DNA from: Escherichia coli
GTDB taxonomy: Bacteria; Pseudomonadota; Gammaproteobacteria; Enterobacterales; Enterobacteriaceae
NCBI RefSeq assembly: GCF_003334385.1
Contig: NZ_QOWN01000048.1
Reading direction: 5' to 3' (one strand)
Length of the DNA: 33,964 nucleotides
Under the pieces are notes generated by a model. That model was given only the letters and a program-made list of their open reading frames with translations, ran no database searches and was not told the DNA's origin. A program made the translations under genes and the position numbers. Positions 1-24,928 of the stretch are shown here, one piece after another (the stretch's first letter is position 1; every line of letters starts with the position of its first letter).

Positions 1-1
1 C

Positions 2-118
2 AGAACGGCTATTCCATTCGAAGGTGAGCGCCATAATGCACTTGATGACGCCCGTTACCAGGCAAAATACGTTTCAGTTATCTGGCAAAAACTGATCCCG
101 AGTCAGGCTGATTCTTAA
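2..118 (+). CDS. 3' end of a prophage gene, possibly a DEDDh-type 3'-5' exonuclease (partial, starts upstream of the window)
   Basis: Frame 2 is open from the window edge to TAA at 116-118. It translates to ...FEGERHNALDDARYQAKYVSVIWQKL..., where H-x-A-x-x-D resembles the Exo III motif of DnaQ-like exonucleases. It lies just upstream of xis-int, where lambdoid phages carry recombination/nuclease genes. Confidence 0.3.
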   Translation, partial: RTAIPFEGERHNALDDARYQAKYVSVIWQKLIPSQADS

Positions 119-129
119 TGTTCAACTGT

Positions 130-161
130 CGCCGGTTGTGACTGGTATTCTGCAACCGGCG
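130..161. repeat. Inverted repeat (9-bp arms CGCCGGTTG / CAACCGGCG, 14-nt spacer) upstream of the xis-like ORF
   Basis: Perfect 9-bp complementary arms read directly at 130-138 and 153-161. No T-run follows, so an operator or RNA structure is more likely than a terminator. Confidence 0.25.
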
Positions 162-190
162 CTCGTCTGATGTAAGAGATAAAGAAATCG

Positions 191-442
191 ATGAGCGAAG
201 TAATCATGATTGTCTCTCCCGGCAAATGGGTATCCGAAGAGCAGTTAATTGCGCTGAAAGGAATAAAAAAAGGTACGTTAAAAAAGGCCCGGGAAAAATC
301 GTTTATGGAAGGAAGGGAATATAAGCATGTCGCTCATGACGGTATGCCATGGGATAACAGTCCATGCTTTTACAACCTGGAAGAAATTGATCGCTGGATT
401 GAGCGCCAGGCATCAGCGAGACCAAGACGTCATCTTACTTGA
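191..442 (+). CDS. Small excisionase-like / DNA-binding protein of the prophage integration module
   Basis: 83-aa basic ORF immediately upstream of and co-directional with the integrase gene (20-bp gap), the typical xis-int arrangement. Assignment is by position and size, not by a recognised motif. Confidence 0.4.
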   Translation: MSEVIMIVSPGKWVSEEQLIALKGIKKGTLKKAREKSFMEGREYKHVAHDGMPWDNSPCFYNLEEIDRWIERQASARPRRHLT

Positions 443-461
443 CTAAAAGCCACACTAACTA

Positions 462-1757
462 ATGAGAGAAGTTGAAATGAAATATCCGACAGGCGTGGAA
501 AACCATGGAGGGAAATTACGTATCTGGTTTGTTTATAAAGGCGTAAGAGTCAGGGAAAATCTGGGGGTTCCTGACACAGCAAAAAACAGGCGCGTTGCAG
601 GTGAACTACGCTCCTCTGTTTGTTACGCAATAAAAACTGGTGTTTTCGACTATGCAAAACAGTTTCCCTCCTCACGCAATCTGGAAAAATTTGGTGAGGC
701 CCGACAAGATTTAACCATAAAAGAACTGGCTGAAAAATTTCTGGCACTGAAAGAAACTGAAGTCGCCAAAACATCACTCAACACATACCGTGCCGTCATC
801 AAAAATATCCTGAGCATAATCGGTGAAAAAAATCTTGCCTCATCGATTAATAAAGAAAAATTACTGGAGGTTCGTAAAGAGCTACTGACTGGATACCAGA
901 TCCCCAAAAGTAACTATATTGTTACACAACCAGGGAGATCGGCTGTAACTGTAAATAATTACATGACAAATCTTAACGCCGTGTTCCAGTTTGGTGTTGA
1001 TAACGGTTACCTGGCAGATAATCCGTTTAAGGGGATCTCGCCATTAAAGGAATCAAGAACCATTCCGGATCCTCTTTCGCGGGAGGAATTTATCCGTCTT
1101 ATCGATGCGTGCAGAAATCAGCAAGCAAAAAATTTATGGTGTGTTTCTGTTTATACTGGCGTTCGCCCTGGTGAGCTGTGTGCACTTGGATGGGAGGACA
1201 TAGATCTGAAAAATGGAACAATGATGATCAGGAGAAATTTAGCAAAAGACCGTTTCACGGTACCAAAAACACAGGCGGGAACCAATCGGGTCATTCATCT
1301 TATTAAGCCAGCAATCGACGCTCTCCGGAGTCAGATGACATTAACGAGACTGAGCAAAGAGCATATCATTGATGTTCACCTCAGAGAGTATGGCAGAACA
1401 GAAAAACAAAAATGCACCTTTGTTTTTCAACCTGAAGTGTCAGCGAGAGTAAAAAATTATGGTGACCATTTTACCGTTGACTCAATAAGGCAGATGTGGG
1501 ACGCAGCGATAAAACGTGCCGGACTCCGCCATCGAAAATCATATCAGTCGAGACATACTTATGCCTGCTGGTCGCTGACAGCTGGTGCTAACCCGGCATT
1601 TATAGCAAACCAGATGGGCCATGCAGATGCGCAAATGGTATTTCAGGTATACGGAAAATGGATGTCTGAAAACAATAATGCACAGGTAGCTTTGTTAAAT
1701 ACACAGTTAAGCGAGTTTGCCCCAACCATGCCCCATAACGAATCAATGAAAAATTAA
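462..1757 (+). CDS. int: Phage tyrosine integrase (site-specific recombinase), apparently intact
   Basis: 431-aa ORF with C-terminal SRHTYA...H...VYGKW, resembling the R-H-R-Y catalytic region of lambda-family integrases. It ends 188 bp before rspB, the position where E. coli K-12 has the Qin prophage integrase. The second ATG at 477 may be the true start. Confidence 0.8.
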   Translation: MREVEMKYPTGVENHGGKLRIWFVYKGVRVRENLGVPDTAKNRRVAGELRSSVCYAIKTGVFDYAKQFPSSRNLEKFGEARQDLTIKELAEKFLALKETEVAKTSLNTYRAVIKNILSIIGEKNLASSINKEKLLEVRKELLTGYQIPKSNYIVTQPGRSAVTVNNYMTNLNAVFQFGVDNGYLADNPFKGISPLKESRTIPDPLSREEFIRLIDACRNQQAKNLWCVSVYTGVRPGELCALGWEDIDLKNGTMMIRRNLAKDRFTVPKTQAGTNRVIHLIKPAIDALRSQMTLTRLSKEHIIDVHLREYGRTEKQKCTFVFQPEVSARVKNYGDHFTVDSIRQMWDAAIKRAGLRHRKSYQSRHTYACWSLTAGANPAFIANQMGHADAQMVFQVYGKWMSENNNAQVALLNTQLSEFAPTMPHNESMKN

Positions 1758-1944
1758 TTTAATATTTATCAAATAGTTAACACGCATGACTCTTGAAATC
1801 CATAAATTCAAGCGCAGTGCCCAGCCATCCCGATACTGCTGCTTTCACCAAATCCTTAGTGCTTCTTTCGTGTTTTTCTATTGTCATAATGGTTATCTCT
1901 AAAAAAGAGGTAAGATGCGTACTACTTACTCGCCGTTATTGGTA
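1758..1944. other. Integrase-proximal spacer expected to contain the prophage att junction
   Basis: AT-rich non-coding spacer between the integrase stop and the convergent rspB stop. The exact core cannot be placed without the other prophage end. Confidence 0.25.
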
Positions 1945-2964
1945 TTATTCAGAAAAAGTGAGTAAGACTTTGCAGCAATGTTTTTGATCCTGTTCAAATA
2001 AACTAATGGCATCAGCAACATGCTGGAAATCAAACGTATGGGTAATTAATTTTTCTGGTTTAATTAACCCTTTACTTAACCAGTCGATAACGATCGGGAA
2101 TTTATTTGCATTTAAGCGTGAAGAGAAAATAGAGAGTTCTTTTCCGGTAATTCCTTGCTGAATCACTTCAGACGGTTCACTGGAGAACCCCATCAATACA
2201 ATACGTGCCGCTGGAGAAGCCAGCGTTACGGCCTCTTTCAGGATAGAAGGATGACAAGCCGCATCGATAATTAATGTCGGCTTGATGCCTTTTTCAGTGA
2301 AAATCTCGCCAAGCGGTGTCTGGCTGTTATTAATCGCCCAGTCAGCCCCGCTCTCTTTCGCTTTTTCCAGTCGTTCATCAATGCGATCGGCAACAATCAC
2401 ATTTTTAACGTTATAGACGCCTTTTAATACCTGAACGATCGTCAGGCCGATTGGACCGGCACCATAAACCAGAACGGTATCATTTTCAGTCGGTTGACCA
2501 TGTCCGGTTACGTTAGCCGCAATGGTAAAAGGTTCGATCATTACCGCATATTGATCGGCCACTGCTTCAGGAATTTTCCACGCATTTTTTGCCGGAACCA
2601 CGGCATATTCACTGAAACCACCGTCAGCGTGCACACCTAATACAGCCAGTGTCGTACAAACGTTCGGTTTACCTATAGAGCACGGATAGCAATGCCCACA
2701 ACTGACCACCGGATCGACAGCAACACGTTCACCGACTCTGGCGCTTTCCACGCCTTCACCCACTGCATCAATGACGCCAAAGAATTCATGACCAATGACG
2801 CGCGGATATTTCGCAAAAGGATTATGCCCACGATAAATATGGCTATCTGAACCACAAATTCCGGCAAGTTTCACTTTTACTCGTACTTCACCCGCTGACG
2901 GGGTGGGTATTTCACGTTCGACAATCGCCAGTTGATTCGGTTTTTCAATTAATATGCTTTTCAT
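1945..2964 (-). CDS. rspB: Zn-dependent alcohol dehydrogenase family protein RspB (starvation-sensing protein B)
   Basis: Translation MKSILIEKPNQLAIVEREIP...GHEFFGVID...VSCGHCYPC... matches the RspB/MDR family. Start trimmed to the ATG at 2964, which has an AAGGAG Shine-Dalgarno; the ORF track's 347-aa start is upstream of this. Confidence 0.85.
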   Translation of the reverse strand: MKSILIEKPNQLAIVEREIPTPSAGEVRVKVKLAGICGSDSHIYRGHNPFAKYPRVIGHEFFGVIDAVGEGVESARVGERVAVDPVVSCGHCYPCSIGKPNVCTTLAVLGVHADGGFSEYAVVPAKNAWKIPEAVADQYAVMIEPFTIAANVTGHGQPTENDTVLVYGAGPIGLTIVQVLKGVYNVKNVIVADRIDERLEKAKESGADWAINNSQTPLGEIFTEKGIKPTLIIDAACHPSILKEAVTLASPAARIVLMGFSSEPSEVIQQGITGKELSIFSSRLNANKFPIVIDWLSKGLIKPEKLITHTFDFQHVADAISLFEQDQKHCCKVLLTFSE

Positions 2965-2975
2965 TATCTTACTCC

Positions 2976-4190
2976 TTACCAGTTCCACAGCGTGCCATCT
3001 TCCAGACGTGCGACTGGTAGATAAGCAGGTTCATAGGGATATTTCGCCGCCAGCTTTTCATCGAATTCGATACCAAGACCCGGTTTGTCTCCCGGATGCA
3101 TATAGCCGTTATCGAAAGTCCAGTTGTGCGGGAAGACTTCGAGCATTTGTTCGGAATAACCCATGTATTCCTGGACACCGAAATTGGGGACCCACAGATC
3201 AAAGTGCAGCGCCGCAGCCATGCAGACTGGTGACAAATCGGAAGGACCGTGTGAGCCAGTACGTACCTGATACAGCGAAGCAAAATCGGCAATCCGGCGC
3301 ATACCGGTAATTCCGCCTGCATGGGTCAGCGTGGTGCGGATATAATCGATGAGTTGCTCTTCAATCAGTTGTTTGCAGTCCCAGATGCTGTTGAAGACTT
3401 CACCCACTGCGATGGGTGTGACGGTATGTTGGCGAATGAGACGGAAGCATTCCTGGTTTTCCGCAGGCGTCGGGTCTTCCATCCAGAACATGCGATAATC
3501 TTCAATGCTTTTACCAAAGCGCGCCGCTTCAATAGGCGTTAAGCGATGGTGCATGTCATGCAGCAAATGTTCATTAAAACCAAACTTGTTACGTACCGCG
3601 TCAAACAATTTCGGCATGAAATCGAGGTATTTCTCCGTCGACCACAGCTGCTCTTCCGGCCACTGTCCTTTGGTTGCGGGTTCATAAGCCAGACCTTTAC
3701 CTTTCGACATGCCGTAGGTGGTTTTCATACCAGGGATTCCGCACTGCACGCGGATGGCTTTGAATCCAAGCTCTTGATGACGGGCATAATCATCCAGAGC
3801 TTCATCAATACTGTGACCGGTGGTATGGCAATAAACCATCACCCCTTCACGAGACGCGCCGCCGAGTAACTGGTAAAGCGGCATGTTGGCAGCTTTGGCT
3901 TTAATATCCCACAGCGCCATATCAACCGCTGAAATGGCCGACATCGTAACCGGACCGCGACGCCAGTAAGCACCTTTATAGAAAAACTGCCAGATATCTT
4001 CGATACGGTGCGCATCGCGACCAATAAGCTGCGGACAAAGGTGATCCTGCAAATAAGAGGCCACGGAAAGCTCACGTCCATTGAGGGTGGCATCCCCAAG
4101 GCCCGTAATACCGTCCTCAGTGGTGATTTTTAATGTGACGAAATTACGCCCCGGACAGGTAACAAAAACTTCAGCCTTTACGATCTTCAT
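2976..4190 (-). CDS. rspA: Enolase-superfamily dehydratase RspA (mannonate dehydratase-like, starvation-sensing protein A)
   Basis: Translation [40 protein letters not shown]... It sits upstream of rspB with an 11-bp gap, consistent with an rspAB operon. Start trimmed to the ATG at 4190 preceded by AAGGA. Confidence 0.85.
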
Positions 4191-4395
4191 GTTCGATTCC
4201 TTGCATCGCTTGTCGTGATGCATGAAATCTACGCAACTGAGCTACTACCATACAAGTATAAAGATCGAAAAAAGCCGGAGTGATCACAAAAAAAGGCGTA
4301 TATTTGCGCTGTGAATGGTTGACAAAAGATGAAATAGAATACCTTTTGTCAGCTGACACTTCCTCTTATCTTATTGATAAAATGGATTTATGTTC

Positions 4396-4722
4396 CTACG
4401 TGCGCCCCCAGCCCGCAACAATGATCAACATGCCGCAAAGCGCAATCAACGCACCCGTCCAGTCATAAAGAGTCAGTTTCACGCCATCCACAACGCGCAG
4501 CCACATCAACGCCGTGCAGACATAAACGCCACCATAAGCCGCGTAAACACGCCCACTCGCCGCTGGATGCAACGTTAACAACCAGACAAACAGCGCCAGT
4601 GAAATCCCCGCCGGAAGCAACAGCCAGATACTGGCGTTTCGTTTTAACCACAACCAGGGCAGAAAGCATCCAATAATTTCACACAGCGCAGTAGCAAAAA
4701 ATAGTAACGTTGTTTTAATCAT
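4396..4722 (-). CDS. ynfA: UPF0060 family inner-membrane protein YnfA
   Basis: 108-aa strongly hydrophobic ORF ([26 protein letters not shown]...) in the conserved position between rspA and ynfB. Confidence 0.8.
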
Positions 4723-4856
4723 CTTTGTCTCTTATTGACATCATGTATAGTTATAGGGCGACATAATATCATCAATATAAACACCCTCCTGGTACGTTTT
4801 GCGTCCGCAGTGGATGGTGTAGAATCACCTTTAATCATTCATACAGGGAATGAATT

Positions 4857-5198
4857 ATGAAAATCACTCTCAGCAAACGAATCGGCCTGCTCGCTATTCT
4901 GCTGCCTTGCGCACTGGCATTGAGCACAACTGTTCATGCCGAAACTAACAAACTGGTGATTGAGTCTGGCGACAGTGCACAAAGCCGCCAGCACGCCGCT
5001 ATGGAAAAAGAGCAATGGAATGACACGCGCAATCTGCGCCAGAAAGTGAATAAACGCACTGAAAAAGAGTGGGATAAAGCCGACGCCGCTTTTGATAACC
5101 GCGATAAATGTGAGCAAAGCGCCAACATCAATGCCTACTGGGAGCCCAATACTTTGCGCTGCCTGGACCGTCGAACTGGCCGCGTTATTACCCCCTAA
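4857..5198 (+). CDS. ynfB: Secreted protein YnfB (UPF0482 family)
   Basis: 113-aa ORF with an N-terminal signal peptide ([28 protein letters not shown]) in conserved synteny upstream of speG. Confidence 0.75.
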
Positions 5199-5232
5199 CC
5201 TGTTATTGATTTAAGGAATGTAAGGACACGTT

Positions 5233-5793
5233 ATGCCAAGCGCCCACAGTGTTAAGCTACGCCCGCTGGAGCGTGAAGATTTACGCTATGTACATCAACT
5301 CGACAATAACGCCAGTGTGATGCGTTACTGGTTTGAGGAACCCTACGAAGCCTTTGTTGAACTCTCTGATCTGTATGATAAGCATATTCACGATCAGAGC
5401 GAACGGCGCTTTGTGGTGGAATGTGACGGCGAAAAAGCCGGTCTGGTGGAGCTGGTGGAAATTAACCATGTTCATCGCCGCGCAGAATTTCAGATAATTA
5501 TCTCCCCGGAGTATCAGGGGAAAGGTCTGGCAACCCGTGCCGCCAAATTAGCAATGGACTATGGCTTTACCGTTCTCAATCTCTATAAGCTGTATCTGAT
5601 CGTTGATAAAGAGAATGAAAAAGCGATTCACATTTACCGCAAGCTTGGCTTTTCGGTTGAAGGTGAATTGATGCACGAGTTCTTTATTAATGGTCAATAT
5701 CGTAATGCCATTCGCATGTGTATATTCCAGCATCAGTATCTGGCAGAGCACAAAACACCGGGGCAGACTCTCCTGAAGCCGACCGCACAATAG
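5233..5793 (+). CDS. speG: Spermidine N1-acetyltransferase SpeG (GNAT family)
   Basis: 186-aa translation [41 protein letters not shown]...[18 protein letters not shown]... recognised as SpeG. Confidence 0.9.
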
Positions 5794-5795
5794 CA

Positions 5796-6506
5796 TTAAT
5801 AATAATCGATCGTATTTTTGATGGTGTAAACCCGTTCGACGGCGGGTTTTACTCCTTCATCAACAATGATTAGCTGACAGTCCACCGGATTAGCGTGACT
5901 GTCATATTCACAGCTCTGTTTTACATTACCAACCCGTTGATTATTCAGTAAAGTAACCGCTGTGTAATCTAATTTTTTGATCGGATCCGTTGATGGCGTG
6001 GCGCTGACAGATAATGTTTTGTCGTTACTTTTCGTGGTTTTACCCAGCGGATAACCCTGATCATCATAGCGATATTCCATCTGCATTTGTTTGCTGCTGG
6101 CTTTAATCACGAAGCCATTATCATCGGTTTCCCAACTCACCCCGGCAGAAGGTAATTCTGCTAGCTGGCATTTTCCCTGTAAACGTACTCTCTTCTCCAG
6201 CGTCTCGGCATCACGGTAATAATTGGCGTCCAGTACCAGAGCGACCACGGTATTATTTTCCAGATCCAGTAATTCGAGTGAATCAAAACAGCCTTCTTCC
6301 GACAAAGTCCCAGAAACACGTTTCGTCACTTCACCTTGCTCATCCATTAATGTCTGAGTGAAATCTTTTACCGGACCACGCAGCGGATCAAAATCGAATT
6401 CATTAGAGAAACTGGCCATCTCAGGGGTAAATGAAAGTGTTACCTCTGTGCGGTCACATCCTGTGAGGAATATCGCGAGTAAGCATGGTAGTAATTTGTA
6501 TTTCAC
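5796..6506 (-). CDS. ynfC: Lipoprotein YnfC (UPF0257 family)
   Basis: Contains a lipobox (LLPCLLAIFLTGC) and lies convergent with speG. Start placed at the in-frame GTG at 6506, giving a 236-aa product beginning (M)KYKLLPCLL; the 248-aa ORF-track start is less likely. Confidence 0.75.
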   Translation of the reverse strand: MKYKLLPCLLAIFLTGCDRTEVTLSFTPEMASFSNEFDFDPLRGPVKDFTQTLMDEQGEVTKRVSGTLSEEGCFDSLELLDLENNTVVALVLDANYYRDAETLEKRVRLQGKCQLAELPSAGVSWETDDNGFVIKASSKQMQMEYRYDDQGYPLGKTTKSNDKTLSVSATPSTDPIKKLDYTAVTLLNNQRVGNVKQSCEYDSHANPVDCQLIIVDEGVKPAVERVYTIKNTIDYY

Positions 6507-6613
6507 AACAGTCACCAGAGAGTAGAGATGATTCTCAATCATAGTAGCAAATACAGTACTTTACACGTTAAATGCTATGCTTAAAGAAGTTATCTTCGCG
6601 TAAGGAGCTTATG

Positions 6614-6919
6614 ATGAAACTCTCAACCTGCTGTGCCGCGCTTCTGCTCGCCCTCGCCTCACCCGCGGTACTCGCCGCGCCGGGATCCTGTGAGCGCATA
6701 CAGAGCGATATATCACAGCGCATTATCAATAATGGCGTACCCGAAAGCAGCTTCACGTTAAGTATTGTACCCAATGACCAGGTTGATCAGCCTGATTCCC
6801 AGGTCGTCGGCCATTGCGCTAATGATACGCATAAAATTCTCTATACCCGCACCACCAGCGGTAACGTCTCTGCTCCCGCGCAGTCTAGCCAGGATGGCGC
6901 GCCTGCCGAACCGCAGTAA
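6614..6919 (+). CDS. ynfD: Secreted DUF1161-family protein YnfD
   Basis: Signal peptide MKLSTCCAALLLALASPAVLAAP. Start moved to the second of two adjacent ATGs, which has better AAGGAG spacing; product is 101 aa. Confidence 0.75.
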   Translation: MKLSTCCAALLLALASPAVLAAPGSCERIQSDISQRIINNGVPESSFTLSIVPNDQVDQPDSQVVGHCANDTHKILYTRTTSGNVSAPAQSSQDGAPAEPQ

Positions 6920-7004
6920 CACATTATCGACTGAACGCCGGATATGACAAATCCGGCGATTTGAACATACAACATAATCCCACCTTATTACTCATACCCT
7001 TCTA

Positions 7005-7018
7005 TTGATATGGATTAA
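7005..7018. promoter_or_regulatory. Candidate FNR-type binding site (TTGAT-ATGG-ATTAA) upstream of ynfE
   Basis: One mismatch to the TTGAT-N4-ATCAA consensus, about 100 bp upstream of the ynfE start. The ynfEFGH operon encodes anaerobic respiratory enzymes. Sequence match only. Confidence 0.25.
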
Positions 7019-7117
7019 TAATTCTTAACCCAAAATGGGTAGACTCCCTCTATTGTTAGCGCGCTAAATATTCAATATATAAACTTTTATATAACGATAA
7101 AGAACAGGGAGTGAGTT

Positions 7118-9544
7118 ATGTCCAAAAATGAACGAATGGTGGGCATCAGCCGCAGAACACTCGTTAAATCTACCGCGATAGGTTCTCTGGCGCTGGCTGC
7201 AGGCGGTTTTTCTTTGCCGTTTACCCTGCGCAATGCAGCAGCAGCGGTACAACAGGCCCGCGAAAAAGTGGTCTGGGGTGCCTGTTCCGTCAACTGTGGT
7301 AGCCGCTGTGCACTTCGTCTACATGTTAAAGATAATGAAGTGACCTGGGTGGAAACTGACAATACCGGCAGCGATGAGTACGGCAACCATCAGGTACGCG
7401 CCTGTTTGCGCGGTCGCTCCATCCGCCGGCGTATTAATCATCCCGATCGCTTGAATTACCCAATGAAACGCGTGGGCAAACGCGGCGAAGGCAAATTCGA
7501 ACGGATTAGCTGGGATGAAGCCCTGGATACTATCGCCAGTAGCCTGAAGAAAACCGTCGAACAATATGGCAATGAGGCTGTATATATTCAGTACTCTTCG
7601 GGGATCGTTGGCGGCAATATGACCCGCTCTTCGCCATCAGCCTCGGCGGTCAAACGCCTGATGAACTGCTACGGCGGTTCACTCAACCAGTATGGCTCCT
7701 ACAGCACTGCGCAAATTTCCTGTGCCATGCCCTACACCTACGGCAGTAATGATGGCAACAGCACCACGGATATTGAAAACAGCAAGCTGGTCGTGATGTT
7801 TGGTAACAACCCGGCAGAAACCCGCATGAGCGGTGGTGGCATCACTTATCTTCTTGAAAAAGCGCGCGAGAAATCGAACGCCAAAATGATTGTTATCGAT
7901 CCGCGATATACCGATACGGCTGCCGGTCGTGAAGACGAATGGCTCCCTATTCGCCCGGGCACCGATGCCGCGCTGGTTGCGGGTATTGCCTGGGTATTGA
8001 TTAACGAAAATCTCGTTGATCAACCTTTTCTCGATAAATACTGCGTCGGCTATGACGAAAAAACCTTACCCGCAGATGCACCCAAAAATGGTCACTATAA
8101 AGCCTATATTCTTGGTGAAGGTGACGATAAAACAGCGAAAACGCCGCAGTGGGCTTCGCAAATTACCGGTATCCCGGAGGACCGTATCATCAAACTGGCG
8201 CGTGAAATTGGCACAGCAAAACCCGCTTATATCTGCCAGGGCTGGGGGCCACAACGCCAGGCAAACGGCGAACTGACTGCACGCGCTATTGCTATGTTAC
8301 CTATTTTGACGGGCAATGTCGGCATCAGCGGCGGAAATAGTGGCGCGCGTGAATCGACCTATACCATTACCATAGAACGCCTGCCGGTGCTGGATAATCC
8401 GGTCAAAACGTCAATCTCCTGCTTCAGCTGGACAGATGCTATCGATCATGGTCCGCAAATGACGGCAATCCGCGACGGCGTCCGCGGCAAAGATAAACTG
8501 GATGTGCCCATTAAGTTCATCTGGAACTACGCGGGAAATACCCTCGTTAATCAGCATTCTGACATCAACAAAACGCATGAAATTCTGCAGGACGAATCGA
8601 AATGCGAAATGATTGTGGTCATCGAAAACTTTATGACCTCATCGGCAAAATATGCCGACATTCTGCTGCCAGACCTGATGACCGTTGAGCAGGAAGATAT
8701 TATTCCTAACGACTACGCCGGTAACATGGGATATCTCATTTTCCTCCAGCCTGTCACCAGCGAAAAATTCGAACGCAAACCGATTTACTGGATCCTGAGT
8801 GAAGTCGCGAAACGTCTTGGACCTGACGTCTATCAAAAGTTCACAGAAGGTCGCACGCAGGAACAATGGTTACAACATCTGTACGCCAAAATGCTTGCCA
8901 AAGATCCGGCGTTACCGTCTTACGACGAACTGAAAAAAATGGGTATCTATAAGCGTAAAGATCCCAATGGCCATTTTGTCGCCTACAAAGCATTTCGTGA
9001 CGACCCCGAGGCAAATCCACTTAAAACGCCTTCCGGTAAGATTGAAATTTATTCCAGCAGGCTGGCGGAAATTGCCCGTACCTGGGAACTGGAAAAAGAT
9101 GAAGTGATAAGCCCATTGCCAGTTTATGCCTCAACCTTTGAAGGCTGGAACTCCCCTGAACGTAGAACCTTCCCACTGCAACTGTTTGGTTTCCATTACA
9201 AATCCCGTACTCACTCGACCTACGGCAATATTGATCTCCTGAAGGCTGCCTGCCGTCAGGAGGTGTGGATCAACCCTATAGATGCGCAGAAACGTGGGAT
9301 TGCCAACGGCGATATGGTGCGGGTGTTTAACCATCGTGGCGAAGTTCGGCTACCAGCCAAAGTAACACCACGTATTCTCCCTGGAGTTAGCGCTATGGGC
9401 CAGGGAGCCTGGCACGAGGCCAATATGTCTGGCGATAAAATCGACCATGGCGGCTGTGTGAATACGCTAACCACTCTGCGCCCTTCACCACTGGCGAAGG
9501 GAAACCCGCAGCACACTAATCTGGTCGAGATCGAAAAAATATAA
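7118..9544 (+). CDS. ynfE: Tat-exported molybdopterin oxidoreductase catalytic subunit YnfE (DMSO/selenate reductase family)
   Basis: 808 aa with a twin-arginine signal (SRRTLVKSTAIGSLALAAGG), an N-terminal Cys cluster (CSVNCGSRCALR) and DmsA-like length. Confidence 0.85.
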   Translation: MSKNERMVGISRRTLVKSTAIGSLALAAGGFSLPFTLRNAAAAVQQAREKVVWGACSVNCGSRCALRLHVKDNEVTWVETDNTGSDEYGNHQVRACLRGRSIRRRINHPDRLNYPMKRVGKRGEGKFERISWDEALDTIASSLKKTVEQYGNEAVYIQYSSGIVGGNMTRSSPSASAVKRLMNCYGGSLNQYGSYSTAQISCAMPYTYGSNDGNSTTDIENSKLVVMFGNNPAETRMSGGGITYLLEKAREKSNAKMIVIDPRYTDTAAGREDEWLPIRPGTDAALVAGIAWVLINENLVDQPFLDKYCVGYDEKTLPADAPKNGHYKAYILGEGDDKTAKTPQWASQITGIPEDRIIKLAREIGTAKPAYICQGWGPQRQANGELTARAIAMLPILTGNVGISGGNSGARESTYTITIERLPVLDNPVKTSISCFSWTDAIDHGPQMTAIRDGVRGKDKLDVPIKFIWNYAGNTLVNQHSDINKTHEILQDESKCEMIVVIENFMTSSAKYADILLPDLMTVEQEDIIPNDYAGNMGYLIFLQPVTSEKFERKPIYWILSEVAKRLGPDVYQKFTEGRTQEQWLQHLYAKMLAKDPALPSYDELKKMGIYKRKDPNGHFVAYKAFRDDPEANPLKTPSGKIEIYSSRLAEIARTWELEKDEVISPLPVYASTFEGWNSPERRTFPLQLFGFHYKSRTHSTYGNIDLLKAACRQEVWINPIDAQKRGIANGDMVRVFNHRGEVRLPAKVTPRILPGVSAMGQGAWHEANMSGDKIDHGGCVNTLTTLRPSPLAKGNPQHTNLVEIEKI

Positions 9545-9601
9545 CCCACGACAACCATAAATTCTGGCATGACATTTTGTTTGAAAAGCAATAAGTGAGT
9601 A

Positions 9602-16549: not shown

Positions 16550-19500
16550 TTAATCCACTCCCACTTTTTTGTTGTACTCGCGGTTAAAGCGATCCACGGC
16601 AACCTTCATATCCCGCTCTACCGATTTCACCATCGCCGCCTGCTGCGCCAGACTGAGAGAACTGTCGGCATAAATGGCATCGCGCTGTTTGCGCAAATCC
16701 TTCAGTCTCTTCCGGGTATCCTGCATAAGCCCGTTCATCAACAATTTTCCGTTGTTCTCGTCAATGAACGCCGTTCTTTCTGCACCGGTCAGACTCTTCA
16801 GCTCTGCGTGATACTGCGCAACCTCTGTCATCCGGTCGTACATCTTCTGCTGGTCTGCATACGGCATCACCTCACCCGAAATTTTCCCCAGGAAGGGCAC
16901 CTGCTGCTCCGGTATATCAATACCGTTCAGCGATTTCACCGCCGCATCTGTGGTTTTGGAAATGAAGCGCCCTGTCCCTCCGGAGATATAGTCAATCCAG
17001 AATTTCAGCGATTCCGGTGTGATATCCACCGCGCCGGGACGATACTGGCTGCCACCTGAGAACGCATTCAGCCAGGATGCAAACGCCTTGTACGCCTCAG
17101 GCGTTGAACGTCTGCCCAGCTGGCTGTCCGGTTTCGGTGTGCCAAATGGCATGTTCTCCTGGTAAATCTGCGCCCCCATGAAGTTTTCATTCATGGCAAG
17201 GTTCGCAAACGGACGCAGAATGGTCGGCGCTGCATTTTTCAGCAATGCCCCGGACAGTGTTTCCGACGTTTCACTGCCCACAGGACTGAATGCCCCCAGG
17301 ATACCACCGACAACATTACCGGCAGCACGTGAAGCAGTCAGGTCGCCCGCTGCCACACCTTCAGCAGTATGCCCGAGCAGGAAGAAAACGTTGTACCCGT
17401 AAGGCAGAGGAATACTCCAGTACTCTCCGGCCTTGCCCCCGAACACCGATTTCATAATGACGAGGTTACGCTCTTTCACATGAGACGGCACCTTGTCATA
17501 CCAGTTAACCCCGTCATCATCCTCCCCCGCAACACTGCGGTTAAGCGAGCCAAGCAGATAACCCGCTCCCACAGCTGCAAGCGCGATTTTCTGCGGTACA
17601 TTGAGATTCTTCCAGCGAAGGCGCTCCGGTAACGGCCCGTCGCCATTAAGATGTCCGAGCGTTCTCACCAGGTTTGCGGTCCCCTGAATGCTGGCGTTGG
17701 CAAACATATACAGCGAGTTCATCAGCGCTCCCTGCTCACCACGACGGTTAAAGTTCACCGTCATGTTTTTGGCAAGAGATGCCGCCTGCTGGCGTGACAA
17801 ACCGGCATCACGGGCGTGTTTATAGGCAGAAAGACGCAGAGCGTTTTCAACCGCGCCGTTGGCATCCTCGACCAGGTTCAGGAACGAATGCCATGCACCG
17901 ATACTCTGGCCTTTCCATCCTCCCTTCGCCAGCGATACAAGGCGATCCATTTCCTTCTGCTGGCCTTCAAGGTCACCCATGTTAAACCAGCCGGTTTTAC
18001 CTCCATCCTCAACAAACTCTTTCCACACCTTCTGCCACTGCGCACCGTTGCCCGTGAGGGTTTTACCACGCAGACTGGCGTATACGGCAGACATGGCAGA
18101 CCGGCTGTCTTTCACCACAGCCAGGGCGGATAAGTTATCCTGCCCTTTCAGTTTACCGTCGCTCCTTCCCTGCTCAGCCTTCAGGTTCATCACCGCCGTC
18201 TGCACGTCACGGATGAAGTTACTGACCAGAAATTCCGGGTTATACGACGTGTTCACCGTTGCCAGGAAACGGTTAACTTTCCCCAGCGTACGGATTACGG
18301 CGTTACTGGTTTCCGGCCCCATGTTCTTCATCGCACGCATCAGGCGCGGGTCATGGAGTTTGATGTAGTAAGTTTTGCCGTCCTTTTTGGTGGTGAAGTA
18401 GCGATCCGCCATCATTGCCATAGGCACCGGACGTTCAACAACTTCGCGACGGGTTTCGCCGGTTTCCGGATCAACACGCTCTGCAATCGCCCGCATGGTG
18501 TCCGGTTTGTCATCAGTGAATACCTGCCAGTAATCCTTATCGGGATTATCCTGCACCAGTTTCAGGAAGGCGTTACCCACTTCGTTTTTGCGATTGCGGA
18601 TCAGCGATTCGCTCAAATCCTGTATCGCCTGAGTGGAAGGAGACTGTGCGCGGGATGCACGCCCCATGGCCTGCCTGCTTTCACGTCCGCCGATGGTGAA
18701 GCCCTTACCTGTACGGGGCAGTGACACCACACCGTCAACATCCTGACCTTTCAGGGGAACGTAGTAACGGTAGGCGTTCTGCCAGGCATCCACCACACCG
18801 CTCTCTTCCAGTCCGGCCTCACGGATAAGCTCACGGCGACGGGCCAGCATATCGTCAACAATCCCTGCCAGACGGTCATACTGTGCCTGTTTGCCACTGT
18901 TACGCACACGCTGCATGATTTCCGCCGCTTCCGCGTTGGTCATCCCCGAACCGCCGTCCGGCATTTTCGGGTTGATTTTCGCGATATGCGCGTTACGTTC
19001 CGGCGCGTGACGGGCGTAGAGGTACTCATCCAGATCGGCCTGCGCAATTTTGTAGTCCGCCAGTAATTTAGCCAGTGGCTGAACGTAGCGCTCCTTCATC
19101 ACGTTCAGGTCGTTTTCCGCCTTCCCGTGGAAGAGTTCTTCCGCCATATAAGCGTTGTTACTGTCGTCTATTTTTCCGCCAGTTTTACGGATATTCTCCT
19201 GAACAGCTTTCAGCACCTGGAATTTATCCTGCATCTGGCGCACAAAACGCGATGCAATTGTCTCTTCCGGTGTCAGACTGCTGGTACGGGAGTAATACGG
19301 CCCCTTGCGAATATCTTCAGGATAGAGTATTTTATCTACAGAGCCGCGATAAGAACGCTCCTCTTTGGGCAATTGGAGCCCACTGTACTGAGGGTTATCG
19401 CGGCTTAATTTCTCCTTCCGGTAAAGCGTTAATCCAGCCATTTCCATACTTTTCAGCTTTTTCCCGTTTTCCGTACCGTAAACAGATGCCACCTTGTTAA

Positions 19501-22500
19501 TTTCCAGACGTTTATCTGTCGCCTTCATATGCACTGCCGAGACGACCGGATCACCATTTTTATCCACAGCATCAAGCAGCATCACAACCGCATTTCTTTC
19601 TGTCGCGGAACGGTAAATTGCATCCGGATTGTGCATCAGTTCCGGAAGTCTCTCGATAACATCCATTGGCACCACATGTTTCACGCCATTGGTAGCCTTC
19701 CGCACAGTGTCGCGGGAGATAACCAGCGGCAAATCTGGTGCGCCAAGGTGGCGCAATACCGGCGGCGTACGCCCGATGTTTGCAGTCATTGCACCAGAAC
19801 GTAACGACTTCATCATTCTGGCAAGGTCATCACGATAACGCTCGCCCTCACCTTCCGGCACTTTGAACGGATCAGGCTTACCGCTACGGGAGTACTGAGA
19901 CGATGCGCCAGCGCCATCCTCACGCGGCGTGTAACCTTCCCGCACACGCTGGCCTAACGTGCGAATAGTTTCGCGAACAAGTCTGATATCGTTCAGCTCT
20001 GTCGGCTTCAGTAACCCCGTGCGACGCAGTACCCCTTTGACCAGGGCAACAACACGCTCCCACGCCGCCACAAATTTATTCGGCTGTTTCTCCGCCATAT
20101 GTGCCAGAAATTCACCTGCCTGCACTTCCGGTGATTCCTTACCATAAGACGCATCAACCTTACGCCAGGCGTCACGGATGGTGGCGTTATCACTGTCACG
20201 GGTTTTCAGTACGGTCTTAATAATCGTCTGATATTCCGCTGGCGTGACTACATGCTCCATTGCATGGTGAATAATCTCGTGACGTAACTTCTCGCGAACG
20301 GTCCGCCCGTCAGGGATGTTATCCGCCACCAGGACAATTTCACGTTTATCCGGACGATAGAACGCATGCACCCTGCCGTAACCGTCGAACGATTCACCCG
20401 CCAGCGCTTCAGCCTCTTTCTGTGACTTCACCACGCGGACCTTCAGGTCACTGTCCTTAATGCCACTCATCACGCCACGGGCAACCGCTTCAACCTGCGG
20501 GACCGGGCTGCCTTTGGCTTCCGCACTGCGGTTAACATCCGAAATGAGATTGCCTTCAGGTGTGCGGGTCACGCCCTTACGGGAATAAAACGCAACGCCC
20601 TTGTCCGTCTTACGGGTTTTCAGCGTACTGAACAGGTGATCGAATGCATCACGAATACCGCCATCCAGTTCCGCATTCGTCGGATAAGCCCAGGTGTTAT
20701 CTGTGTTGTGCTCAGGTGCCTTACGGATATTGACCAGATAATCATTCTCCACGCCAGCCGTACGCGCTTTATCCTGAACATAACGCTCAAAGGCACGCGC
20801 CGCCATTTCAACATCCGTTGACCAGTACGGTTTTGAGCGCACCTCATCGAGAAGCGCTGAACGACGCGGCATGTCACTGCTGTTGATCGCTTTCATCACG
20901 CCTTTAAACGCGTCGTAAACCTCCTGACGTACCGGATATTCCGCATCAACATATCTGCCGTCTTTAAATACGCGCCCGGCACGTTGTGCTTCCGTCATAT
21001 AGTCGCCACCTGACGTGATCTTCCCGTCAGTGGAAACATCATAACGACCAAAATAATTATCCAGTGAATGGAACCATTCGTGGGCCAGCGCCCCCGGTCC
21101 GTTACCTTTTGTCAGGTTGATTGCCACCTCACCCGGCTCATAGTGTGCCGCCGCCTTACCCTTACCACGGGCACCAAAAGCAAGCCCAAGACGACCATTC
21201 AGGGAAAGCGCTTTTGTCGGAACGTTCAGCACGTCAGCCAGGTCATGCAGCGAGTCATAAGCCCGGTTCAAATCAGCCTGACGACGCGGACCTTCCACAT
21301 AATTACCAAACTGCACACCACGGAAACCAAACGCATCACTGAACTGCTCCGGCGAAACATCCCCTTTGCGGCGTTCTGGTCCGGTGCGGTCGCGGTTAGT
21401 GGCGTTACGCTGCTCCTCACGCGAAATCTCCCGCATCTCCTTCACATGACGAACAAGCTCATCACGATGTGAATCAATGTACTTACGCGCATCACTGGCT
21501 GACTTAAAACCACCTCTCACCCGCATTTTGTTTTTGCCGTAAGCGATAAAAATATCGCCACTACGGGTATTCCGGTAAACGTCAAAGCTGATTTTGTCAT
21601 CTGGTGACGGTGCTGTTTTTTCATCACCTTTCGCCCGTGACTTTTCCTCCTGCTCTGCAAACCAGGCTTTCGCCTTTGTCAGTAATTCATCCCTGCTTTC
21701 CGAGAAAAAGAGGTTACTCCCCTTATTGTCCTTATTGCGCAGTGAATAAAGTTTCTGTGGCGGATCGTAACGCTTCCCTCCGGCCGCCTGATACACACCG
21801 GATACCACCCGATAAGCAGAAGCCTTGTCCATCTGTGAGGGTGGCAGAGTGCGTAACAGTTGCCAGGTATCCGCGTAACGGGAGGGCATTCTGCCTTCCA
21901 TCCATTCTGCGAGGCGTTTCGCGCTGACCGTTCCGTTCAGCATTTCCGATACACTGTGTCGTACTTTTTTTACGCTCTCCCCCCAGCCAGCCGTATTGTG
22001 TTTCGTCTTCGCCGGAATATCGCTACGATACAGCGCTATCATTGCCAGGGTGTCAGCATCAGCCCCTTCGCTCGCCAGTTTTGCGTAGTCCGGTTTCGGG
22101 AACAGTTTGCTCAGCGGCTGCGTGGCATAATCCCTGTCTTCCAGCGTTTTACCCAGTGTTTCAGCAAGCTGTGCATAACGGTGTTTGGCTGCCCCTTTAA
22201 TTTCCTCGCCAAAGTCTTCAATTTTTTTGCCCCTGACTTCACCTCCGCGCACAGTAGCTTCCCTGTCAGTAGAGACAGTTGTTTCAGATTCAGGTGCGAT
22301 TGTCTCAGGCTGCGGGATGTCACGATTTCCTCCGGCCTGTCGACGTACTTCTGCCTGCTGTGCGAGCTCAGGCAATGAGTTACGAACAGTTCGGGGAAGC
22401 TGATCAGGCTGAGGCATACGGACATTGTGTGTAATGTCCGGAGCCGGTAGACCTTCACGTACCAGCGCTGTGGCGTTCTGCTCATCCGGTGACGGCAGAC

Positions 22501-24928
22501 CACGACGAACTGTTTCGCCCTCCAGTATTTCCCCCTGGCGACCAGCGGCATTTTCCGGTGCCTGCGCACGTCCTTTCTGGAAACTCTGGCCCTTCACCTC
22601 ACCGGTTGTGGTAAAACGACCACCACGTCCGGCCTGATTTTCATCCGGCGTACGCGCTACTTCTCCCGGTAACGGATATCCCTGTCCGGGATGAATATCG
22701 CCGGGAGCGGGAAGGCGTGGACGCTCAGTTAACTCCTGTGCTGTCGGACCGGCATCACCTTCAGCCATCTGGGAACGCACCAGTTCTTCCGCCGTCGGCG
22801 CGTTGCCACGGGCAAGACGGGCCTGCACTTCTGTATCATCCCCCGTAAAACCACGGAATCGCGGGTCACGCATGAACGCGGGCTGTTCCATCGGATCAGC
22901 ATCAGTAATACGCTCTCCGTCAGCCAGAGTGTTAATGGTCTCCGTTGCCACATCTTCAGAGAACGCAGGATTATCCATTTCAACGGCATACTGATTCTCG
23001 CCTTTCTTCACTACGGACGGTTTCAGGCCGGTGGCGCTGGCATTGCGGAAAACGTCGCTCCCCAGAGCACTTTTTTCATCCGTGAAATAACGGTTGTCCG
23101 GACGCACCTTTTCAATGCGTTCTGCTGGTCTGGACGCACCACTCCCGTTAATTTCAATACGAACTTCATCCGGATCGCGGAACCGCACCGTCGGGTAAAT
23201 ACTCCCGTCGCCATCATCCGCATTTTCCGGCTGTGGCTGTGCCTCCGGTCTGGCCTCCTGCTGAGGGCGAAGCACATCACGGATAGCCTGTAACTGCTGC
23301 TCTTCAGTATCAGTACGCCCTTCCTTCAGGCTGAGTTTTCGGTATTCCTCAAGCAGTTCAGGGCGCGGCTTCGCCTTCAGCTCATCCATCACCGCCTGTC
23401 GCTTCGCCTGTTCATCCAGTTCATTTAACAGCTGGCTGGCGGCTTCCCGGCGATGAACGGCAGACGTGTCTCCCTCAGGTGCCATATCCGCATCAGCATA
23501 CTGTTCCAGAAGTTGCTCGCGATTCATGCCCTGCATGGATTCGCGATGCTGTGCCACCGGATCAGCCGGTTCGGGTTGCGGGGCTGCTTCACCCTGCTGT
23601 ACGACTTCAGCCTCACGCATGGCGGTTTCTTCTGCGGCCTGACGTTTTCCACGATATCCGGCAACCGCACCGAACGGTGCGCCCATCGCAGCACCAAGGG
23701 CTGCACCTTCGATCGTTGCGTCAGCCACGCCCTCCCCCGGTGACACATCCATTCCGGCGGTCTCACGCAATGCCGTGTTTTCCTGATAGCGTGAATAGCC
23801 ACCCTGCGCCGCATTAATCGTCCCCTGTTCCGTGGCATTTCTGACAATGCCGCTTTTAACGGTCTTCGCCGTGCCCCGCATCGCCAGATTAAACAACTGA
23901 GCATCGCCCAGTTTTGCCGCCATGGCATTCACAGCCAGCAATTCAGGATCGGTTGCCAGCTGCGCGCGCACCTCATCGGCAACACGCTCTTTTGCCAGGT
24001 CCATTTTCTGGCGATCAGTAAGCTGTGCGTGCTGTGGATCTGCATCAATTGACAAAAACGTCTGCTGAAATTTCGGTGACTGCGCCAGCTCAGCGTAATC
24101 CGCATTAAGAACAGCATCTGCTGCCGACATTGCACTCTGCCCCTGTGCACTGGCTGTGGAATGGGTGATCAGGCCCGCATGGAAGAAATCCGTCATTTTT
24201 TTATCGACAGCTTCTGCTGCCAGTGCCGTGGCTCTTTCCGGCTGCACTCCTGCCGCGATGTATTTTTTCTCCAGCCCGGCGGTCAGCGTTCTTTTCAGTG
24301 CGACCTGTCCCACCTTTCTAACCACACCGCCAGCAACCAGATCAGGTACAAGCGCACCAATCAGGTTTACACCCTTCGTCAGCAAGACCGCAGAATCATC
24401 ATAGCCTTCACTCATTGGCGTGTTCAGCGCACGAACAGCACCCGGCGACATCTGATCTGTCAGCCATTCATCCGAGGCTTTGGCACCATCACTGACTGCC
24501 TTGCCTGTGGCCTTCAGACCTTTACCGACAGTATCAGTCACCGCGTTTTTCCCTGTTCCATCGGGAATGTTTTTAATCGCATCTCCAACAGAAGGTGGTG
24601 CGCCCAGTTCCTTTTGCGTGGAGGAAGGCGGCATGTAAACATCCGTCATGAAAGACGACAACCCGGCAAGCGTTTTTACAGGATTATTTACAAGTGCATC
24701 ACCGAGTCCACGGGCCATTTCCCCTGTTCCCCGGACGGACTGGGCGAAACCTTTACCCATTGTTGGCAATACATCGCCCAGGCTGAACGACGTGCTGTGA
24801 TCAACAGCGTTCTCCGGGTTGTTGAAAAAATCCTGCCAGTAATTTTCTCCCGGCTGCTTAATGTTCAGACTGCTGCGGTTCTGGTTACCCAATTGCGCTT
24901 CAGGGCGCTGCTCATCTGAAAAAGCCAT
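16550..24928 (-). CDS. Giant multidomain phage protein (2792 aa) with two zincin-like HExxH motifs; putative virion-associated 'polyvalent' injected protein
   Basis: Uninterrupted 8379-nt ORF. HEWFH at residues 1283-1287 (nt 21068-21082) and HEIIHH at 1550-1555 (nt 20267-20281). The N-terminal ~1000 residues are A/G/Q/E/P-rich low complexity. SD GGAG 6 nt upstream of the ATG. It is the last gene of a co-directional operon of small structural-type proteins. Confidence 0.75.
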   Translation of the reverse strand: MAFSDEQRPEAQLGNQNRSSLNIKQPGENYWQDFFNNPENAVDHSTSFSLGDVLPTMGKGFAQSVRGTGEMARGLGDALVNNPVKTLAGLSSFMTDVYMPPSSTQKELGAPPSVGDAIKNIPDGTGKNAVTDTVGKGLKATGKAVSDGAKASDEWLTDQMSPGAVRALNTPMSEGYDDSAVLLTKGVNLIGALVPDLVAGGVVRKVGQVALKRTLTAGLEKKYIAAGVQPERATALAAEAVDKKMTDFFHAGLITHSTASAQGQSAMSAADAVLNADYAELAQSPKFQQTFLSIDADPQHAQLTDRQKMDLAKERVADEVRAQLATDPELLAVNAMAAKLGDAQLFNLAMRGTAKTVKSGIVRNATEQGTINAAQGGYSRYQENTALRETAGMDVSPGEGVADATIEGAALGAAMGAPFGAVAGYRGKRQAAEETAMREAEVVQQGEAAPQPEPADPVAQHRESMQGMNREQLLEQYADADMAPEGDTSAVHRREAASQLLNELDEQAKRQAVMDELKAKPRPELLEEYRKLSLKEGRTDTEEQQLQAIRDVLRPQQEARPEAQPQPENADDGDGSIYPTVRFRDPDEVRIEINGSGASRPAERIEKVRPDNRYFTDEKSALGSDVFRNASATGLKPSVVKKGENQYAVEMDNPAFSEDVATETINTLADGERITDADPMEQPAFMRDPRFRGFTGDDTEVQARLARGNAPTAEELVRSQMAEGDAGPTAQELTERPRLPAPGDIHPGQGYPLPGEVARTPDENQAGRGGRFTTTGEVKGQSFQKGRAQAPENAAGRQGEILEGETVRRGLPSPDEQNATALVREGLPAPDITHNVRMPQPDQLPRTVRNSLPELAQQAEVRRQAGGNRDIPQPETIAPESETTVSTDREATVRGGEVRGKKIEDFGEEIKGAAKHRYAQLAETLGKTLEDRDYATQPLSKLFPKPDYAKLASEGADADTLAMIALYRSDIPAKTKHNTAGWGESVKKVRHSVSEMLNGTVSAKRLAEWMEGRMPSRYADTWQLLRTLPPSQMDKASAYRVVSGVYQAAGGKRYDPPQKLYSLRNKDNKGSNLFFSESRDELLTKAKAWFAEQEEKSRAKGDEKTAPSPDDKISFDVYRNTRSGDIFIAYGKNKMRVRGGFKSASDARKYIDSHRDELVRHVKEMREISREEQRNATNRDRTGPERRKGDVSPEQFSDAFGFRGVQFGNYVEGPRRQADLNRAYDSLHDLADVLNVPTKALSLNGRLGLAFGARGKGKAAAHYEPGEVAINLTKGNGPGALAHEWFHSLDNYFGRYDVSTDGKITSGGDYMTEAQRAGRVFKDGRYVDAEYPVRQEVYDAFKGVMKAINSSDMPRRSALLDEVRSKPYWSTDVEMAARAFERYVQDKARTAGVENDYLVNIRKAPEHNTDNTWAYPTNAELDGGIRDAFDHLFSTLKTRKTDKGVAFYSRKGVTRTPEGNLISDVNRSAEAKGSPVPQVEAVARGVMSGIKDSDLKVRVVKSQKEAEALAGESFDGYGRVHAFYRPDKREIVLVADNIPDGRTVREKLRHEIIHHAMEHVVTPAEYQTIIKTVLKTRDSDNATIRDAWRKVDASYGKESPEVQAGEFLAHMAEKQPNKFVAAWERVVALVKGVLRRTGLLKPTELNDIRLVRETIRTLGQRVREGYTPREDGAGASSQYSRSGKPDPFKVPEGEGERYRDDLARMMKSLRSGAMTANIGRTPPVLRHLGAPDLPLVISRDTVRKATNGVKHVVPMDVIERLPELMHNPDAIYRSATERNAVVMLLDAVDKNGDPVVSAVHMKATDKRLEINKVASVYGTENGKKLKSMEMAGLTLYRKEKLSRDNPQYSGLQLPKEERSYRGSVDKILYPEDIRKGPYYSRTSSLTPEETIASRFVRQMQDKFQVLKAVQENIRKTGGKIDDSNNAYMAEELFHGKAENDLNVMKERYVQPLAKLLADYKIAQADLDEYLYARHAPERNAHIAKINPKMPDGGSGMTNAEAAEIMQRVRNSGKQAQYDRLAGIVDDMLARRRELIREAGLEESGVVDAWQNAYRYYVPLKGQDVDGVVSLPRTGKGFTIGGRESRQAMGRASRAQSPSTQAIQDLSESLIRNRKNEVGNAFLKLVQDNPDKDYWQVFTDDKPDTMRAIAERVDPETGETRREVVERPVPMAMMADRYFTTKKDGKTYYIKLHDPRLMRAMKNMGPETSNAVIRTLGKVNRFLATVNTSYNPEFLVSNFIRDVQTAVMNLKAEQGRSDGKLKGQDNLSALAVVKDSRSAMSAVYASLRGKTLTGNGAQWQKVWKEFVEDGGKTGWFNMGDLEGQQKEMDRLVSLAKGGWKGQSIGAWHSFLNLVEDANGAVENALRLSAYKHARDAGLSRQQAASLAKNMTVNFNRRGEQGALMNSLYMFANASIQGTANLVRTLGHLNGDGPLPERLRWKNLNVPQKIALAAVGAGYLLGSLNRSVAGEDDDGVNWYDKVPSHVKERNLVIMKSVFGGKAGEYWSIPLPYGYNVFFLLGHTAEGVAAGDLTASRAAGNVVGGILGAFSPVGSETSETLSGALLKNAAPTILRPFANLAMNENFMGAQIYQENMPFGTPKPDSQLGRRSTPEAYKAFASWLNAFSGGSQYRPGAVDITPESLKFWIDYISGGTGRFISKTTDAAVKSLNGIDIPEQQVPFLGKISGEVMPYADQQKMYDRMTEVAQYHAELKSLTGAERTAFIDENNGKLLMNGLMQDTRKRLKDLRKQRDAIYADSSLSLAQQAAMVKSVERDMKVAVDRFNREYNKKVGVD

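Follow-up and report, generated by a model that had tools for sequence, protein, structure and literature searches.

The first 1805 nucleotides of a 33,964-nucleotide stretch of Escherichia coli DNA (contig NZ_QOWN01000048.1 of assembly GCF_003334385.1; the whole stretch is called the window below) are very probably the integrase end of a lambda-like prophage of the mEp460/Qin type, inserted into the chromosomal gene ydfJ through site-specific recombination mediated by its integrase, Int. The segment begins within an exonuclease gene (exo) and continues with an excisionase gene (xis), the integrase gene (int) and the int-proximal attachment (att) junction, beyond which the chromosome resumes. 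The xis and int genes together with the junction form a complete set, and this set is an ordinary, previously described module of a widespread ydfJ prophage: both the insertion site in ydfJ and its att sequence are already in print (PMC8112680, PMC6379469).

The mode of insertion can be read from the attachment sequences. A four-way comparison of phage attP, empty attB and the two prophage junctions locates the crossover in an 11-bp core, GAAATCCATAA (Table 1). The distal junction was taken from E. coli SCU-104, the closest complete genome, whose identity with the window is 100% over 1-2000 and 99.6% over the covered 98% of 1-25000. Recombination of attP with attB accounts exactly for both junctions, which are its reciprocal products, with the flanks swapped around the core. 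Identity between the window and the phages stops at position 1810, and identity with the empty site begins at 1792/1795; the similarity extended around the core, CTkGAAATCCATAA(A)TTCA (window 1792-1810), contains one mismatch and a one-base indel and spans 18 bp of attP and 19 bp of attB. An att sequence of 18/19 bp is given for ydfJ prophages by Nakamura et al. 2021 (PMC8112680), and its length and locus suggest that it is the one found here. The same paper describes the attP region of a ydfJ prophage with an intact integrase, in O26:H11 strain 11368, as obtained in the form of a PCR amplicon. By the lambda convention the int-proximal junction is attL, though it lies at the right in the orientation of the window.

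Table 1. Features of the window, with the residues of Int (numbered in its 431-aa form) and the attachment sequences discussed in the text; aa, amino acids; ORF, open reading frame
Feature	Position or source	Strand	Basis or sequence
exo 3' end (full gene 2472 nt)	1-118	+	annotated exonuclease in SCU-104 (100% identical over window 1-2000)
xis, 83-aa excisionase (recombination directionality factor), DUF1233	191-442	+	intact ORF, Pfam, PHROG
int, tyrosine integrase, 426 aa (RefSeq start 477) or 431 aa (ATG 462)	477/462-1757	+	intact ORF, domains
Int Arg I	R235		motif TGVRPGEL
Int beta-hairpin Lys	K269		motif PKTQAG
Int Arg II	R364		motif SRHTY
Int His III	H387		motif MGHAD
Int Tyr nucleophile	Y397		motif QVYGKW
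Candidate arm-type Int sites, two TGCCCCA 11 bp apart (starts 1718, 1729)	1718-1735	+	in last int codons; putative
ydfJ 5' fragment, first 31 codons + 5 phage-derived codons + stop (36-aa frame)	1777-1887	-	compared with intact SEC470 ydfJ
Crossover core GAAATCCATAA, 11 bp, int-proximal junction	1795-1805	.	four-way attP/attB/junction comparison
attP	phages HannyBb, mEp460_ev081		...catgactctt GAAATCCATAA ttcacaggtg...
attB	strain SEC470, empty ydfJ		...aatataactg GAAATCCATAA attcaagcgc...
Int-proximal junction	window, core 1795-1805		...catgactctt GAAATCCATAA attcaagcgc...
Distal junction	strain SCU-104		...aatataactg GAAATCCATAA ttcacaggtg...
rspB, first chromosomal gene past junction	1945-2964	-	RefSeq annotation of SCU-104
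rspA	2976-4190	-	RefSeq annotation of SCU-104
Second prophage, 933W-like short-tailed type, in ynfG	12124-33964	.	phage coverage and end of K-12 homology
IbrA-like (PAPS-reductase-like)	13931-15157		RefSeq annotation of near-identical SCU-104
IbrB-like (ParB-like)	15142-15786		RefSeq annotation of near-identical SCU-104
Panacea-domain gene	15875-16399	-	RefSeq annotation of near-identical SCU-104
Giant 2792-aa LPD38-domain protein	16550-24928	-	RefSeq annotation of near-identical SCU-104

The preliminary description of the window had placed the element at the Qin locus next to rspB, and the junction does lie in the 5' end of ydfJ with rspB beyond it. Insertion of Qin at the ydfJ 5' end has been published (PMC6379469), and in genomes with an empty site ydfJ stands immediately beside rspB. 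The severed head of ydfJ, sited downstream of rspB, retains the intact start of the gene, and in SCU-104 a C-terminal ydfJ pseudogene is found at the opposite end of the prophage. The span 191-1944, which had been described as an integrase module, deserves that name as far as xis and int are concerned, whereas positions 1758-1944 lie outside the integrase and hold the att arm, the core and the 5' end of ydfJ.

The module is shared with isolated phages. Over window 1-1810 the DNA is 99.89% identical to HannyBb (PP925841) and 99.17% identical to mEp460_ev081 (LR597641), and both phages have the gene order exo-xis-int. At the protein level Int is 100% identical to its counterpart in HannyBb, 99.5% in PhiR42_1 and 99.1% in both mEp460_ev081 and Tritos; VT1-Sakai, BP-4795 and similar Shiga-toxin phages carry 61-62%-identical integrases and are distant members of the same group. 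HannyBb is a complete lambdoid genome with terminase, head and tail genes, repressor/cro/cII-like genes, an O-like replication gene, a Q-like antiterminator and a holin. The phage mEp460_ev081 has been described as a functional temperate phage with homologues of dicB, dicF, dicAC and rem, and as a live relative of Qin (bioRxiv 10.1101/2023.04.14.536235). In mEp460-type phages the exo-xis-int-att order is the same and attP contains the core GAAATCCATAA, whereas the window presents the integrated state, with the arm joined to ydfJ. This likeness covers the integration module alone, the remainder of the prophage lying upstream of the window.

Such modules are common: of 5426 complete E. coli genomes, 2294 (~42%) contain at least 80% of window 1-2000, O111:H- strain 11128 among the matches at 99.7%. 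Most of the other E. coli genomes match no more than the 10% made up of ydfJ/rspB, a pattern that in the rows sampled corresponds to an empty site. The exact 426-aa Int occurs on 647 contigs, and the cluster of integrases at 90% identity has 5989 members. These figures stand beside a published occupancy of the Qin locus of 48% among 638 strains, with prophages of 11 to 97 kb (PMC6379469). The element also resembles the prophages termed PPydfJ in Shiga toxin-producing and other E. coli, which PMC8112680 and PMC6379469 describe as lambda-like, inserted in ydfJ and present in about half of sequenced strains, and which often bear type III effector genes or form clusters.

How does the module compare with the Qin prophage of K-12? 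Qin (intQ, b1579) occupies the same insertion point in ydfJ beside rspB and has the same junction sequence. Homology of MG1655 to window 1-2000 is limited to positions 598-2000, at 99.7%, and the DNA identity with K-12 over window 598-1900 is likewise 99.7%; the gene there is annotated in MG1655 as an N-terminally truncated integrase pseudogene, in agreement with the preliminary description of the K-12 copy as disrupted. The IntQ remnant corresponds to residues 46-431 of Int, with 99% identity, and upstream of the pseudogene MG1655 has a partial IS2 transposase directly adjacent, followed by a truncated exonuclease gene. Missing from K-12 Qin are xis, the first 45 codons of int, which encode most of the arm-binding domain, and two-thirds of exo at its 3' end; a fragment of the insertion sequence (IS) IS2 stands in their place. 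All of these are intact here, exo being represented in the window by its 3' end. K-12 intQ derives from the same gene through an IS2-associated loss of xis and the first 45 int codons. Excision of Qin was undetectable in K-12, for which the inactive intQ was blamed (Wang et al. 2010, PMC3105296).

Could the prophage of this strain, then, still leave the chromosome? To judge from the DNA, the parts needed for excision at the int-proximal end are intact and practically identical to those of a viable phage, and it is likely that the prophage excises, while the production of infectious particles is uncertain. Both int and xis are full length, with neither frameshifts nor premature stops. The earlier wording, that the element is potentially excision-competent, appears a fair and suitably hedged reading of an Int identical to that of an isolated phage within an exo-xis-int-att block that is 99.9% identical.

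Several observations weigh against excision. The window starts inside exo, so that the distal junction, the repressor/antirepressor (immunity) region and the early promoter all lie upstream of base 1; excision competence is for this reason not provable from the window. Scans of window 1-2000 for consensus promoters and terminators returned sites that were fewer or no more numerous than in shuffled sequences, and no int promoter was recognised. In SCU-104 the ydfJ prophage (~49.5 kb) has an intact distal core and has kept its repressor, Cro-like, Q-like, lysis, head and most tail genes, but J is frameshifted, one tail gene contains an internal stop, and an IS remnant is present. Given this damage to tail genes, a relative of the present prophage may excise without forming particles. 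According to one review, many intQ copies of prophages at the Qin locus are mutated, and loss of the integrase is proposed there as the reason why these prophages are stuck (PMC6379469).

The alternative that survives best accepts the integrity of the module and holds that the prophage is nonetheless grounded, through damage to the distal junction, a failure of derepression or a rearrangement, so that the module would be an undecayed remnant. We regard this as unlikely, though of some weight. It can draw on the position of everything upstream of exo beyond the window, and on the pseudogenes and IS remnant in the prophage of the closest genome. According to PMC8112680, ydfJ is often occupied by clusters of two to four prophages and is involved in inversions, and the size range of 11-97 kb reported for prophages of the Qin locus (PMC6379469) fits the same picture. 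Against it stand the distal junction of SCU-104, in which the core is exact and the phage arm is the expected one, and the retention of repressor, Cro-like, Q-like and lysis genes in that prophage. The 99.9% identity of the module to an isolated phage also leaves little time for decay.

What would be the course of integration and excision? Lambda offers the model: it too has a heterobivalent tyrosine integrase that binds arm and core sites, an int gene beside attP, xis upstream of int, and the same logic of excision control. Here attP was joined to an attB inside codons 28-31 of ydfJ, placing the prophage in the chromosome, a reaction that, on this analogy, Int alone would catalyse. After induction, the early leftward operon exo-xis-int would be expressed to supply Xis and Int; Xis would bend the arm DNA and steer Int towards excision, whereupon Int would recombine both junctions, releasing a circle and restoring ydfJ. 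If the element is excisable, its distal junction would read ...AATATAACTGGAAATCCATAATTCACAGGTGTTTTTT..., joined to the remainder of ydfJ, attP of the excised circle would read ...CATGACTCTTGAAATCCATAATTCACAGG... and attB of the restored empty site would read ...AACTGGAAATCCATAAATTCAAGCG...

The sequence around the core also offers candidates for the arm-type sites that such an integrase would require. In 8.3 kb around the attP of HannyBb, TGYCCCA occurs five times, and four of these copies form two same-strand pairs with an 11-bp spacing, one at -77/-66 and the other at +130/+141 relative to the core (4757-4774 and 4964-4981 of that stretch). With a background of 0.15 per kb in the window, the motif is enriched in the pairs flanking the attP core. 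The pairs may be arm-type Int sites, as their layout resembles that of lambda attP and would suit an arm-binding integrase. A hairpin like sib was sought beyond the attP core, but the candidate in HannyBb (CACAGG...CCTGTG) did not fold better than shuffled sequences (z -1.4, with 21 of 200 shuffles as good); no lambda-style retroregulation is claimed.

Restoration of ydfJ invites a more speculative proposal, namely that the prophage acts as a reversible switch on the rspAB-ydfJ-ydfI sugar-acid cluster, the intact int, xis and junction allowing a regulated excision without lysis that would rejoin the 31-codon head of ydfJ and its upstream signals to the body of the transporter gene. If this were true, excision would turn YdfJ on and reintegration would turn it off. 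Such 'active lysogeny' has been described at comK in Listeria, but we consider the proposal for ydfJ very improbable.

The preliminary description had reported a full-length integrase of 431 aa, and the frame is uninterrupted from the ATG chosen by the authors of HannyBb; RefSeq annotators prefer the start 15 bp further on, a choice that leaves the conclusions here unaffected. Pfam searches find a full-length match to Arm-DNA-bind_2 (PF12167) at the N-terminus (residues 9-72, E 3.7e-23) and the Phage_integrase catalytic domain (PF00589) at the C-terminus (residues 206-397, E 8.7e-18), with weak SAM-like core-binding matches between them. Among PHROGs, Int matches phrog_1 integrase (E 2.4e-76). 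NCBIfam gave only sub-threshold Xer/integron-integrase matches, which do not help in naming the protein. In a sequence search of solved structures the best match was Tn1549 Int (6EMY, E 4e-9), and lambda Int was not reached from the Int query.

The catalytic residues of Table 1 were assigned from alignments with Tn1549 Int, lambda Int, Rac IntR and the K-12 IntQ remnant together with computed motif positions. In Tn1549 Int and lambda Int the residues aligned with R235, K269, R364, H387 and Y397 are catalytic, so that five of the six catalytic positions are canonical. The assignment of R364 as Arg II follows from the match of SRHTY to RHTF of Tn1549 Int and from the 23-residue spacing between Arg II and His III; a register produced by MAFFT, which places H365 under lambda H308, was rejected because it leaves no Arg II. 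The sixth position, His II, is occupied by Tyr361 (window 1542-1544), three residues before Arg II.

It could be argued from this substitution that the full-length Int is catalytically dead: YQSRH stands here where lambda has H308-E-L-R311, and the nucleophile appears shifted, with 10 residues from H387 to Y397 as against 9 in lambda. We find this hardly credible. The same tyrosine is found in the K-12 IntQ remnant and in IntR (YHTRH) of the Rac prophage, an element that excises in K-12 (PMC3105296). Isolated phages encode this very protein, and their attP and the empty attB of ydfJ explain the junctions exactly; integrases 62% identical to it are found in the Shiga-toxin phages VT1-Sakai and BP-4795. 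A dead enzyme on the grounds of Tyr361 is effectively refuted by the presence of this residue in Rac IntR and in the isolated phages; since both share it and Rac excises, Tyr361 is probably a trait of the subfamily and not a defect.

The kinship with Rac goes further than this residue. IntR belongs to the same integrase subfamily, with 43% identity end to end, an arm-binding domain of the same type, the YxxRH and GH..AQMV..YG.W motifs in common and, directly upstream of its gene, a small excisionase gene; Rac differs in its attachment site, ttcA, and in its Xis. Lambda is more distant: its Int is ~22-25% identical, the arm-binding family found here (PF12167) is another than that of lambda, and further differences here are the DUF1233-type Xis, the lack of overlap between xis and int and the Tyr in place of His II.

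The excisionase gene, too, is as previously described, lying upstream of int with an uninterrupted frame whose stop precedes int by 19-34 bp, depending on the int start. Residues 5-73 of Xis match positions 1-69 of the 70 in PF06806 (DUF1233, 'putative excisionase') with E 1.9e-31, and PHROGs return phrog_539 excisionase (E 1.4e-35); an NCBIfam search gave no Xis match. Xis is 26% identical to XisR of Rac, whose K-12 gene is annotated 'excisionase', and the exact protein occurs on at least 1000 contigs. That the two frames are chance or mis-called open frames and form no recombination module has nothing in its favour beyond the general caution that lists of open reading frames are mechanical, and a practically negligible probability given the strong profile matches, the exact proteins on hundreds to thousands of contigs and the consistent annotation of both in RefSeq and phage records.

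The value of these results is mainly one of correct annotation, as they supply genome annotators with the exact junction. The module also serves as a clean reference for K-12 intQ before its IS2-associated deletion. The ydfJ prophage of this strain retains a recombination module that K-12 has lost, so that the element may remain mobile or prone to loss, and its excision could restore ydfJ. Specialists in phage or E. coli genomics will find little surprise here, the block being common in genomes and present in isolated phages.

Beyond the junction, the chromosome occupies 1806-12123 (~10.3 kb) and comprises the ydfJ head, rspBA, ynfABCD, speG, ynfE, ynfF and the start of ynfG. Homology with K-12 stops at 12123, within ynfG, where a second prophage begins; the picture of a core segment of about 10 kb bracketed by two different prophages was therefore accurate. 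PhiR5_2 covers 95% of the second prophage at 95% identity, and the Shigella phages POCJ13 and 75/02 Stx, along with several Stx1/Stx2 (Shiga toxin) phages, cover ~80% at 91-92%. By these similarities the ynfG prophage is 933W-like and unrelated to the mEp460-type element.

Some smaller observations concern this part of the window. Between 4947 and 12123 a single base in 7177 differs from MG1655 (99.986% identity), and the host is very near the K-12 lineage across this interval. The longest frame of rspB (347 aa) starts from a GTG at 2988 and would extend into the end of rspA; the RefSeq start at 2964 gives 339 aa. In SCU-104 ynfE carries an ISEc8 insertion, which the window is without. The region 12124-13931 is ~530 bp longer in the window than its counterpart in SCU-104, and an antirepressor-like frame within it (12943-13734) encodes 263 aa as against the 211-aa AntA/AntB protein of SCU-104, a difference that points to local mosaic variants.

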